A stretch of DNA of 35,678 bases from a virus (taxonomy: Duplodnaviria > Caudoviricetes): positions 1 through 35,678 of IMG/VR virus record IMGVR_UViG_3300023283_000077; one strand, given 5' to 3'. Below the pieces are notes generated by a model. That model worked only from the letters and a program-made list of their open reading frames with translations. It did not search any database and was not told the origin of the DNA. A program made the position numbers and the translations under genes. Positions 1,867 through 35,678 of this stretch are shown one piece after another (within the stretch, counting starts at the first letter, position 1; each line of letters opens with the position of its first letter).

Positions 1867-1897
1867 GTATTTTTGGGTATCCGGATTAAGTGGAAGA

Positions 1898-2428
1898 TCA
1901 TGCGTTTCTTCTGTACTTTGTGCGATAGCGCTGCATGGGCACTGGGTCGCCCTGTTTGAGGGCCCGGTAGGCTACCTGGTATTCGCGTCTACGATCAGCA
2001 TCCCTGCCATCGGCTCGCCTAGCCCCTGGCGGCAGCTTGTGGTGGTCTCCGGGGCGTTGCTCAGTTATTAGCTTGCGGTGGCGAGTGTCATCGACGAGCG
2101 CTTTTCGTCGCCGCCCGCCTCGCCGCGCAGCTTCTACAGCAGACGGGAGATGGTCATAGGTCAGGCGTCCAGAGGTGATCTGGTCCTGCATCTGCAAGGA
2201 CAGCGCTTCGCGTGTGGCGGTCCCGGAAAGAGGGTAGCGCTTCGGTATGCCCCACTTTTCTCGGTAATCGTCATGCGTCATGCCATGGGTGCGAGGGAGG
2301 TGGGTGGCCAGACCGCGAAACCAGCGCCCACATTCCAAGCACTGTATGCGCGGGCCGCCAACGTAGGCGTCCAGTTCGTCGAGCGTCTGGAATGGCCTGT
2401 CACGCACGTCAGAAACCCAGCGACTCAA
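1898..2428 (-). CDS. Ros/MucR-family zinc-finger protein with basic C-terminal extension
   Basis: IQCLECGRWFRGLATHLPRTHGMTHDDYREKWGIPKRYPL = C-x2-C-x9-H-x4-H plus Y-R-x-K-W-x-x-P-x-x-Y-P; start TTG 2428 or GTG 2407. Confidence 0.8.
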   Translation of the reverse strand: MSRWVSDVRDRPFQTLDELDAYVGGPRIQCLECGRWFRGLATHLPRTHGMTHDDYREKWGIPKRYPLSGTATREALSLQMQDQITSGRLTYDHLPSAVEAARRGGRRRKALVDDTRHRKLITEQRPGDHHKLPPGARRADGRDADRRREYQVAYRALKQGDPVPMQRYRTKYRRNA

Positions 2429-2762
2429 TCATGGCCACCCGCTCGGCAAGGCTCATCTCCCGCACGCGGGCGGCGAGGTCACGCAGCGCCGAGTCATCGC
2501 CGGTGTCGCCGTCTTCCAGCTCGGCATCCAGGTGCTTGATCAGCAGCGGTTCTAGTAGTGATCCTGACAAAGTGGTCAAAAGTAGCTGTCGCTCAGCTTC
2601 TGTCAGATCGGGAGGCTGACTGCAAGCCAGCTCATAGCGCTCGGCAATGGTGGCCAGGCGTTGGCTTAGGGTATGGCGTTCGCCCAGGTTATCGACGACC
2701 CGCTCCAGGGGCGGGCTGAGGTAGATGCTAGGTCTACGCTTGTTACGCGACTTGTCGGTCAT
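2409..2762 (-). CDS. Putative ribbon-helix-helix-like regulator (117 aa)
   Basis: GGAG RBS before ATG 2762; N-terminal KRRPSIYLS strand followed by two predicted helices; helical acidic C-terminal part. Confidence 0.55.
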   Translation of the reverse strand: MTDKSRNKRRPSIYLSPPLERVVDNLGERHTLSQRLATIAERYELACSQPPDLTEAERQLLLTTLSGSLLEPLLIKHLDAELEDGDTGDDSALRDLAARVREMSLAERVAMIESLGF

Positions 2763-2773
2763 GACGGATCTCC

Positions 2774-2802
2774 AAAGCAAAGCCCCGACGCGAGGCCGGG
2801 GC
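2774..2802 (-). terminator. Intrinsic terminator/attenuator inside cassette operon
   Basis: GCCCCGGC-CTCGC-GTCGGGGC then TTTGCTTT, between gene 1 and gene 2. Confidence 0.7.
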
Positions 2803-2810
2803 AGCTTGAG

Positions 2811-3005
2811 TTAGCTGTTGCAGTAGTCACCCCAGAGGCGATTCATGATCTCGTCAGCTTCGGCATCGCTGGAGGTCCATACGCCATCGACATAGTTGCC
2901 AGTGCTGTCGCCGACCTTGGCGCTGTGGCCTTGCTCCTCCAGCCAGGTAGCGAATTCTTCGGCTTCCGGGGTATCGACGGCGATGATGATTTCGTAAGTG
3001 CTCAT
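2811..3005 (-). CDS. Small highly acidic protein (64 aa), unknown function
   Basis: AGGAG RBS; 14 D/E vs 2 K/R; first gene behind its own promoter. Confidence 0.8.
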   Translation of the reverse strand: MSTYEIIIAVDTPEAEEFATWLEEQGHSAKVGDSTGNYVDGVWTSSDAEADEIMNRLWGDYCNS

Positions 3006-3079
3006 GGTAGGTCTCCTAGTTCTGCGCCGGTGTGGCCAGTTCTTCGGTTGATGTGGGCTTCGTTTGCCTCACATGATTA

Positions 3080-3108
3080 AAGGTAGCACCCCAGGTGCTA
3101 CCTTGCAA
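3080..3108 (-). promoter_or_regulatory. Cassette sigma70 promoter with overlapping palindromic operator
   Basis: TTGCAA-N17-TACCTT; perfect inverted repeat AAGGTAGCACC-CCA-GGTGCTACCTT at 3080-3104. Confidence 0.8.
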
Positions 3109-3204
3109 GGATTATTTCCAACCAGACAATCCGGAGAGGGTTTTGGTTGCCCCAACCTACTGATTTGGGGAGATCAACCAGCTATTCCGGATACCCGTAT
3201 TTTT

Positions 3205-34097: not shown

Positions 34098-35480
34098 TCA
34101 GTTTATCGTGAGTATGTTTTGCCGCGCGCCAACGCGAATTGTGTTGGCGGCCGCCGGGACGCGCAGTGTCCTGCCGTCTGGAGTAGTGATCTCGATTGTC
34201 AGTATGCCGGCCTGCTGGCCGACGAACACGAGCTGCCCAGCACCCAATTCGAGCGACTGGCCGAACCTCGTATATATGCTCTGCCCGGACAACGCGATGC
34301 TACCGGGCGACACATCTATGCTGATGCCACCGTCAAATTCCGCATCCCGCGCTGTAAATGACAGTGCGCCGCGTGTGACGGACATCGACGCACCGGCAGA
34401 GATGACCCCGGCCAGCCCAGCCAGCGACAACTGGCCCCTGTCCAGTGGCTCAGCATAGCCAGCGGCCACGGCGTGTTGACGCCCCGACGTGACAAGCGAG
34501 CCCGGCTGGATATCCACGGAGACCGGGATGCTATCTCCCGTGACGACAGCCAGCTCCAGCCCCGCGATGCTCAGTGCACCGGCCTGTATCTCTGATCGAG
34601 CGCCCGCCGTGAGGTCAATCGCAGCGCCAGCCGCGGACAATGACCCGCGCAACGCTTCAGGCGCCGCTCCAGCAGACACGTCGCCTGGGGCCCCGCCGAT
34701 GGCCAGGGGGCCCGCCGTCGTATCCATGCGGGCGCCGGCTGACACGGATGCTGCTGTACCGGACAGGGCTAGCGACCCGACTGCCGGGGGCAGATCAGCG
34801 CCTGCAGATACGTCATACTGCGAGCCTCCGAGTGCGATGCTGCCCCGCTGGAGGTCGCCAGCAAAAGCAGTGCCTCCGCCCACGGGCGCCATCGGCGCTG
34901 GATCGCCATCCGTGCCAACGCCAAACCGGGCTATAAAAACTGAATCGTTAGTACGCGAAAACAGCCCAACCCAGCCCGCTGCCGTGATTTCTCCGTCGAT
35001 GTCGTCCGTGTGCCAGACTGACGGCTCCGGGTCCGTGGCCTCCCAAATCCTGGACTGTATCCTGTCCCCAGTGACCCGCAGGCGCAGCCAGTTGTATGTG
35101 ATCGCGCTGTGATTATCTGGAGCAGCAATCGTAAGAATAGTACGCGACCCTGCGACGACCTTCTCACTAATTACTGAGCCATCCCCAACGGGGGATGACA
35201 CATACCCAGTAAATGCCGAGTCGCTGAATCGCCCCCCGCAGCCGCCTTTTTGATTATTGCCGGTGGAGTCCGACCTGCTCTTTATCACCAGCTCAAAATC
35301 TATGGAGGTCCCGGCCTCATCGAAGCTGTAGAACGTAGAGGAGAACGGACCATCCCATCGGATAGCGGGGGTCCCGTTATCGTCCACATGCTCAAACGGA
35401 GCGGCCAGATCGCCATATCGCCCGGTAAATCGGTCGAGTACGCTGGGCCCTTCTGCAGGATCTACAAACCACTGAGCCAT
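34098..35480 (-). CDS. Putative fibre protein: lectin-like N-terminal beta-sandwich + ten ~22-aa repeats
   Basis: WLRLRVTG-I-RIW-EP-W, GWVGL, then G-x-L-x-x-x-G...V-x-AG repeats; 5' part duplicated at 1-201. Confidence 0.7.
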   Translation of the reverse strand: MAQWFVDPAEGPSVLDRFTGRYGDLAAPFEHVDDNGTPAIRWDGPFSSTFYSFDEAGTSIDFELVIKSRSDSTGNNQKGGCGGRFSDSAFTGYVSSPVGDGSVISEKVVAGSRTILTIAAPDNHSAITYNWLRLRVTGDRIQSRIWEATDPEPSVWHTDDIDGEITAAGWVGLFSRTNDSVFIARFGVGTDGDPAPMAPVGGGTAFAGDLQRGSIALGGSQYDVSAGADLPPAVGSLALSGTAASVSAGARMDTTAGPLAIGGAPGDVSAGAAPEALRGSLSAAGAAIDLTAGARSEIQAGALSIAGLELAVVTGDSIPVSVDIQPGSLVTSGRQHAVAAGYAEPLDRGQLSLAGLAGVISAGASMSVTRGALSFTARDAEFDGGISIDVSPGSIALSGQSIYTRFGQSLELGAGQLVFVGQQAGILTIEITTPDGRTLRVPAAANTIRVGARQNILTIN

Positions 35481-35678
35481 TACGGGCTGACTCCAAATGT
35501 GCCGGGCGGATCAGGCCTCACCAGGAACGTCGCCGTATCAGTCGGACCTTTGGCCGACTCCAGCCCGTCGATGTCTGTAGCGGTTATCGTGCATTCGTGC
35601 ACCCCGGTGCCCTGGGCCAGGTCGGTGACCGGCACCTCTCGGCTGCCCGAGCTGACAAATCCCTCCAGCTGCAGTCCT
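35280..35678. repeat. Terminal overlap, copy 2
   Basis: Begins CTTTATCACCAGCTC and ends GCAGTCCT exactly as 1-399. Confidence 0.97.

Follow-up and report, generated by a model that had tools for sequence, protein, structure and literature searches.

A 64-residue acidic phage protein as a candidate type I anti-CRISPR in a cassette with an AcrIE10-type regulator on an ISL3-derived element

The virus record IMGVR_UViG_3300023283_000077 (35,678 bp, analysed over its full length and referred to below as the window) carries, on the minus strand at 2811..3005, a gene for a strongly acidic protein of 64 amino acids (aa), which a preliminary description had put forward as a DNA mimic or anti-CRISPR candidate. 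By analogy with characterised operons, we lean towards the view that this protein is a new type I anti-CRISPR (Acr), encoded in an AcrIE10-regulated cassette that jumped in behind the antiterminator gene Q. It is mainly the context that speaks for the anti-defence suggestion (i.e. an adjoining AcrIE10 homolog, an operator-like inverted repeat, an exchangeable cargo slot and an AcrIC4-like occupant of that slot in related loci), while a clear homolog of the protein among known Acrs did not emerge. The cassette consists of the following features.

2811..3005, minus strand (ATG at 3005, stop at 2811): 64-aa acidic protein, candidate anti-CRISPR, cargo of the cassette
3013..3017, minus strand: AGGAG ribosome-binding site, 7 nt upstream of the 64-aa ATG
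3006..3078, minus strand: conserved 5' leader with two predicted hairpins, common to cassettes with different cargo
3080..3108, minus strand: putative sigma70-type promoter, TTGCAA-17-TACCTT, assigned by eye
3080..3104, no strand assigned: perfect 11-bp inverted repeat (arms 3080-3090 and 3094-3104), putative operator
2782..2802, minus strand: terminator-like hairpin between cargo and regulator
2409..2762, minus strand: AcrIE10-family ribbon-helix-helix (RHH) protein of 117 aa (PHROG 14350), predicted anti-CRISPR-associated (Aca) repressor and possible Cas7 sensor
1898..2410, minus strand: Ros/MucR-type zinc-finger gene, third in the cassette (PF05443, E 2e-14)

An AcrIE10-type regulator and its putative operator

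The regulator gene is assigned, from its sequence and modelled fold, to the AcrIE10 family, which combines an RHH domain with a helical domain. It matched AcrIE10 with an E value of 8e-17 in a profile search and 7e-7 as a single sequence, and its predicted monomer (residues 1-11 of which are of low confidence) matched the AcrIE10 fold in Foldseek with a probability of 1.0, a TM score of 0.72 and 28% identity. Residues R7/S10 of the DNA-reading strand are kept (R9/S12), as are the equivalents of E78 and D81 of AcrIE10, and out of eight AcrIE10 residues reported to form hydrogen bonds with Cas7 (PMC11317147) five are identical. The equivalent of the essential E78 is invariant in all 40 regulator relatives (40/40). 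Such relatives occur in Billgrantia, Halomonas, Salinicola and Microbulbifer as well as in further contigs, which suggests a Halomonadaceae-like host for the phage. A tblastn search of plasmids with the regulator gave no match, and missed even AcrIE10 itself.

AcrIE10, an anti-CRISPR that doubles as an Aca repressor, binds, through its RHH domain, an inverted repeat over the -35/-10 region of its own operon, is released from this operator by Cas7, and controls the upstream acrIE9.2, the main Acr of the Klebsiella operon (PMC13530269). The geometry here is the same, and since it is the gene in the upstream slot that acts as the main Acr in Klebsiella, an anti-CRISPR role for the 64-aa protein is suggested. 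The window cassette thus resembles the acrIE9.2-acrIE10 operon of Klebsiella/Enterobacterales plasmids (PMC13530269, PMC11317147) in its small first gene, its AcrIE10-family RHH second gene and the inverted repeat over the -35/-10 region, but differs in being located on a phage, in its MucR-type third gene, in its operator and in a regulator of only ~28% identity. Aca14 (a 66-aa RHH Aca from Pasteurella; 10.64898/2026.07.27.740549) is likewise an RHH repressor of anti-defence operons, but as described it stands alone, whereas the window regulator has the extra helical domain of AcrIE10.

The 11-bp inverted repeat spans the -35/-10 spacer of the promoter assigned by eye, and in a comparison of 12 loci four of its arm pairs carry changes in both arms, which is what an operator would show. 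The combination of a promoter (with hexamers assigned by eye) and an operator-like inverted repeat is that of Acr loci. The two leader hairpins are reminiscent of the Aca1/Aca2 RNA motifs (10.64898/2026.07.27.740549) and show little covariation across the 12 loci; a search with the leader motif returned 14 viral loci, i.e. four cassettes already in the set and ten chance matches. Hairpins similar to the one between cargo and regulator occur in most related cassettes. The Ros/MucR-type gene, possibly a counter-silencer or a second regulator, also follows the regulator in loci L006 and L007.

An exchangeable cargo slot

In related loci, the slot between the promoter and the regulator, which stay the same (apart from the L006 promoter), holds nine other cargo families (100, 161, 81 (two kinds), 128, 173, 73, 114 and 62 aa); this count takes duplicate loci once and leaves out the distant L018. 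These families are unrelated to one another and to the 64-aa protein (no cross-family match at E<=0.01), and the DNA similarity of the loci to the window covers the promoter and the regulator while skipping the cargo. Almost identical copies of the 64-aa gene are found at L019, L020 and L021, paired with an AcrIE10-type regulator as in the window at L019 and L021, and located under the same promoter within a cluster of small genes at L020. One locus, L025, has three cargo genes in a row. For comparison, AcrIE9 pairs with AcrIE10 in ~96% of its loci (bioRxiv 2025.05.07.652737), while the window-type regulator alternates between ten cargo families.

Five of the nine sister cargo families have a net charge of -9 or lower. 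The best PDB match of the C-terminal part of the 128-aa cargo of L013 and L025 is AcrIC4 (E 0.0037 with a single sequence, 3e-4 with a two-sequence profile), and judging from this similarity the 128-aa cargo is likely an AcrIC4 relative outside Pseudomonas. This acidic protein (L013:3560-3946, plus strand; L025:2489-2875, minus strand) joins the AcrIC4-like part to an N-terminal module that it has in common with P0072, a member of the 64-aa family. Three other sister cargos gave nothing below E 0.6 against PDB sequences, and the L012 cargo gave nothing usable in the ESM Atlas.

The position of the 64-aa gene is thus that of an Acr gene, being small, on a mobile element and directly upstream of an Aca-type regulator, and known Acrs appear, by sequence, to share the locus or slot (the adjoining AcrIE10 homolog and the AcrIC4-like cargo). 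In L020, a homolog of Csx16 (629-916; PF09652, E 5e-16), a ring nuclease that degrades cA4 (bioRxiv 2024.09.24.614671), lies ~770 bp upstream of the 64-aa gene. The small-gene cluster under and around the same promoter (L020:298-2445), which includes a partly duplicated segment, is a candidate anti-type III locus.

Composition and family of the 64-aa protein

The gene is read from 3005 to 2811, which agrees with the coordinates of the preliminary description and sets the strand as minus; a plus-strand reading of 2811..3005 was ruled out. The reported counts of 14 acidic (6 Asp, 8 Glu) against two basic residues (1 Lys, 1 Arg), with three Trp and three Tyr, hold as well, as does the first place in the operon, in the sense that the gene heads its own unit. 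With a net charge of -12 (-0.188 per residue) the protein is the most acidic among the 37 window genes scored, the other 36 ranging from -0.104 to +0.117 per residue, and only 13 of 7,765 overlapping 64-aa windows of these other genes reach -12 or lower. A halophilic host had been named as a possible partial cause of the charge. The phage proteome is indeed mildly acidic, but because its (Asp+Glu)/(Lys+Arg) ratio is only 1.32, this background accounts for a small part of the charge, and the comparison with the other 36 genes excludes it as the sole cause. Such a high net negative charge would suit a DNA mimic.

The protein belongs to a family without a name (~144 clusters at 50% identity), and its coding frame is backed by the 144 of 150 homolog clusters that have the domain, the remaining six rows being long proteins without it that were left out. 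The median net charge of the family is -7, with 67 of 85 members at -5 or lower, and at three positions only (D11, E14, D40) do over 70% of the members have an acidic residue. The acidic type I Acrs known from mobile elements (AcrIF2*, AcrIC3-IC8) are similarly small, and were found via Aca guilt-by-association; of the seven type I-C Acrs described in 10.1101/2020.06.15.151498, six are highly acidic. The 64-aa protein differs in having no sequence match in the PDB, and the window regulator in being an RHH rather than a helix-turn-helix (HTH) protein.

Database searches gave few leads. Nothing was above cut-off in Pfam, PHROGs and NCBIfam (the search covered these and not PADLOC), and the empty Pfam and NCBIfam results are uninformative, because a genuine AcrIE8.1 likewise has no Acr match there. 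A PDB sequence search gave no match with the single sequence and five chance-level matches with the family profile. The predicted structure is confident and has no clear fold match, while the ESM Atlas returned three clusters without names at 0.77-0.78, which are leads only. No relatives were found in the viral contigs searched, matches in GenBank phages were at chance level, and the family was not found in four individually chosen genomes or in 400 sampled Gammaproteobacteria-level genomes, a search that carries no weight as it had no positive control.

Several family members have a composite architecture. P0037, P0072 and P0077 are fusions to HTH domains, and the N-terminus of P0072 matches the L013 cargo (E 4e-9), so that the family is fused to pieces of other cargo. 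In P0038 the domain is duplicated in tandem, and in P0013, P0015, P0017 and P0020 it has a short basic peptide fused to its C-terminal end, which we take to be a KGG-type repeat. At L023:471-1425 the promoter ahead of a family member is a different one and has an inverted repeat of its own, and a small upstream gene that by eye looks RHH-like would represent a second regulator type.

Comparison with AcrIE8

The preliminary description mentioned a loose likeness to type I-E Acr sequences. The likeness fits AcrIE8 and beats shuffled controls, but it is weak and the defining residues are missing. With the family hidden Markov model (HMM), 5 of 24 AcrIE8 sequences scored at least 10 bits (best 13.7), against none of 4,800 shuffles (maximum 6.9), while reversed sequences did not exceed 1.6 bits, and the profile-profile score of 20.6 was above 100/100 column shuffles and 99/100 block shuffles. 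Natural AcrIE8.1 loci were confirmed against PDB 9VX9, and P0235 was removed from the AcrIE8 set. The HH probability, on the other hand, is only 13-40% over 31-35 columns, the unrelated PDB chain HicA reaches the same 13.7 bits, and in the reverse direction the 64-aa query scores 3.9 bits while one family shuffle reaches 11.1. The conserved AcrIE8 motif T2, T3, N7, Y9, R14, F15 was not found in the 64-aa protein, in which the invariant N7, Y9, R14 and F15 have no counterpart, and the NYVD stretch that seems to be common to both varies among AcrIE8 sequences.

AcrIE8.1, which binds Cas11, is monomeric and acidic and is built from two helices and two beta elements (PMC12883894). AcrIE8/AcrIE8.1 (PDB 9VX9) and the 64-aa protein are alike in length (63 versus 64 aa), acidity and, by prediction for the latter, a small alpha/beta make-up, with the weak profile similarity extending over the first helix and second strand. 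They differ in that AcrIE8.1 is followed, in ten loci, by a 68-aa gene and not by AcrIE10. This 68-aa gene is presumably Aca5-like. A complex prediction of a Halomonadaceae Cas11 with the 64-aa family alignment scored 0.02 and, being run without controls, is no evidence either way. Given the weak scores, the parity with HicA and the missing N-terminal residues, an assignment to AcrIE8 was not adopted.

Probable delivery by an ISL3-derived element

The cassette lies within an element of 1,322 bp (1875-3196) whose ends, together with the flanking phage gene, are as follows.

1875..1899, plus strand: left terminal inverted repeat, ISL3-type (20/25 bases match the right repeat)
3172..3196, minus strand: right terminal inverted repeat
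1867..1874, plus strand: left copy of the target-site duplication, GTATTTTT
3197..3204, plus strand: right copy of the target-site duplication, abutting the Q stop codon
3205..3546, minus strand: antiterminator Q, flanking phage gene outside the element

The terminal repeats are common to elements that bear ISL3 transposases, and the 8-bp duplication of the target site is perfect (chance ~3e-6). Public contigs match the window at 95-99% identity over 2322-3198 (X1) and 1870-3203 (X2), beyond which their sequence is unlike it, and the similarity of L021 to the window ends at 3196. The ISL3-type end motif was found in 46 of 341 genomes of the family (none for a reversed control); of 12 end pairs that were fetched, 8 share a transposase, 6 have a perfect 8-bp duplication and one more has 7 of 8 bases, and the transposases scanned were all DDE_Tnp_ISL3 (4/4).

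No transposase was found in the window by tblastn. The element of L086 matches both ends of the window unit and retains the 3' part of the mucR-like gene. The window sequence matches this element as far as the transposase ATG, from where it passes directly into the terminal repeat. In L021, a 31-codon transposase remnant follows the regulator. Together, the junction at the ATG and this remnant point to two independent transposase deletions. Other prophage copies of the cassette have no ISL3-type ends within the DNA fetched, so that the acr-type module likely predates its capture. The flanks of the element differ among the window, L021 and the contigs X1 and X2/X4, which supports transposition in trans only indirectly.

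The likeness to ISL3 transporter elements and mobile insertion cassettes (e.g. ISPpu12a) lies in the ISL3-type ends, the 8-bp duplication and the passenger genes, which are already known from such elements (PMC4133298), and ends like those of the window flank ISL3 transposases in Halomonadaceae genomes. The window element differs in carrying an acr-type operon as its passenger and in the deletion of its transposase. Other Acrs have also been linked to transposition, since AcrIC8 resides in Tn3 elements (bioRxiv 2020.06.15.151498) and a DDE transposase is often found near acrIE9 (bioRxiv 2025.05.07.652737).

None of the loci L065-L097 carries the 64-aa cargo or an AcrIE10-type regulator. The elements of L086-L097 are widespread Halomonadaceae ISL3 transporter elements with 0.6-15 kb between the ends (four fetched pairs are without transposase) and varied passengers, i.e. 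transporters, LysR-type regulators and, by eye, apparent arsenic/metal genes. A 17-nt direct repeat of the window (3119-3135 and 3175-3191) overlaps the right terminal repeat; it could serve as an internal binding site for the transposase or mark the point of a deletion, and L020 seems to be joined across it.

Proposed mechanism and alternative explanations

By analogy with acrIE9.2-acrIE10 (PMC13530269), the strong promoter would fire upon phage entry, when the repressor is absent, giving a burst of cargo. The hairpin behind the cargo would limit read-through, such that cargo outnumbers regulator, after which the RHH protein would bind the inverted repeat and shut the unit down, with release by free Cas7 as a possibility. 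The 64-aa protein itself would be a stoichiometric inhibitor that binds a Cascade subunit, its acidic face covering a basic nucleic-acid-binding surface. Type I-E would be the first guess for the target (given the AcrIE10 partner and the weak AcrIE8 likeness), while I-F and I-C are also possible; markers of these types occur in the 151 sampled genomes of the family (I-F in 66, I-E in 33, I-C in 16), which makes such targets plausible. As for its origin, an ISL3 transporter element would have captured the unit, lost its transposase and inserted, likely in trans, between Q and the lysis genes.

A number of observations weigh against this interpretation. Apart from the absence of a clear homolog of the protein among known Acrs, only one of the nine sister families has a known-Acr match (a modest one; four of the nine were searched against PDB sequences), and four of the nine are weakly acidic or basic. 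The best-kept positions of the 64-aa family are core, aromatic and Gly positions, His27 and Cys62, none of them acidic, and members at L022 and L023 occur without an AcrIE10-type cassette. A promoter scanner gave no sites, as TTGCAA-17-TACCTT is below its threshold; the 11-bp arms are spaced by 3 nt, compared to the 2-bp optimum for AcrIE10; and the hairpin might uncouple the cargo from the regulator altogether. Within the regulator relatives, Q56 is kept in 9/40 and N63 in 2/40, and since the E78 equivalent doubles in the dimer-of-dimers interface (PMC13530269), its conservation need not mean Cas7 sensing.

Aca-regulated operons, moreover, also hold non-CRISPR anti-defence genes, and Aca proteins are predicted to control such operons (10.64898/2026.07.27.740549). 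The protein could accordingly be a DNA mimic of general action, controlled in the same Aca-type manner and directed at type I restriction, BREX, RecBCD or the like, which would suit its net charge of -12 (median -7 in the family), the broad action of Ocr-type mimics and the occurrence of the family outside the cassette. We nevertheless regard this as rather unlikely, with the named functions in or near the slot all being CRISPR-directed (AcrIE10, AcrIC4-like, Csx16) and three mostly acidic positions being weak patterning for a strict phosphate mimic. Within the anti-CRISPR interpretation, a remote AcrIE8 member that binds Cas11 of the type I-E Cascade is unlikely: the near-identical length, the scores above shuffles and the acidic, Cas11-binding nature of AcrIE8.1 are offset by the low HH probability, the HicA score, the 3.9 bits in reverse and the absence of the defining residues. 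A modulator of a host SOS or DNA-metabolism protein (e.g. RecA, DinI-like), or some other factor for host takeover that has no bearing on immunity, seems improbable. Least credible is a passenger without a current role in a hitch-hiking, transposase-deleted relic; the deleted transposase and the chance-like insertion behind Q would fit, but the open reading frame (ORF), ribosome-binding site, operator and regulator are all intact and the family core is conserved across 144 clusters.

Beyond the preferred interpretation of the 64-aa protein as a type I Acr, a wider scheme can be sketched with some doubt. AcrIE10-type RHH proteins would be a general Aca marker at the head of an anti-CRISPR cassette with interchangeable cargo in phages of Halomonadaceae; the 64-aa protein would represent a new Acr family without a fold match, and several sister cargos would be further new Acrs. 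The regulator would sense Cas7 and so adjust the cargo that is present, and ISL3 mini-transposons would carry acr operons, complete with their regulation, into phage genomes.

In the literature searched, which excluded most subscription papers, neither AcrIE10-type variable-cargo cassettes from phages of Halomonadaceae nor a non-autonomous ISL3 element with an acr operon was described; candidate lists in bioRxiv supplements, dbAPIS or AntiDefenseFinder may already contain the 64-aa family. RHH repressors have been proposed as baits for Acr discovery, with one fixed partner and on plasmids (PMC13530269). The present loci suggest that this bait also works in phages of another family, yielding ten cargo families as candidates, one of them AcrIC4-like. 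They also offer a concrete route by which a phage could gain a complete, self-regulated counter-defence operon, namely capture by an ISL3 element from which the transposase was later lost, with a clean target duplication as the trace of its insertion. Inhibitors of type I systems that are new would be of use as off-switches, including in Halomonas, which is an industrial chassis.

Phage context and further regulator loci

The window has the genes of a temperate tailed phage (terminase, portal, capsid, cI, cro, primase, Q and holin), with the 64-aa gene situated between Q and the lysis genes; no integrase was found among the 42 window ORFs scanned. Its last 340 bases (35339-35678) are a second copy of positions 60-399, as would fit a phage assembly that is complete and circular.

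Two further groups of regulators were observed. The L006 regulator (L006:3986-4330), together with P0192, P0197 and P0200, forms a subgroup that shares the RNPSF strand with AcrIE10, and the L006 promoter differs from that of the other cassettes, which makes this subgroup a natural test case for co-variation of strand and operator. Distant AcrIE10-like genes of ~32% identity (H1-H11 and L018) are found in phages of Streptococcus and Paenibacillus and in a single viral contig, and the genes upstream of them are Acr candidates in Gram-positive hosts.
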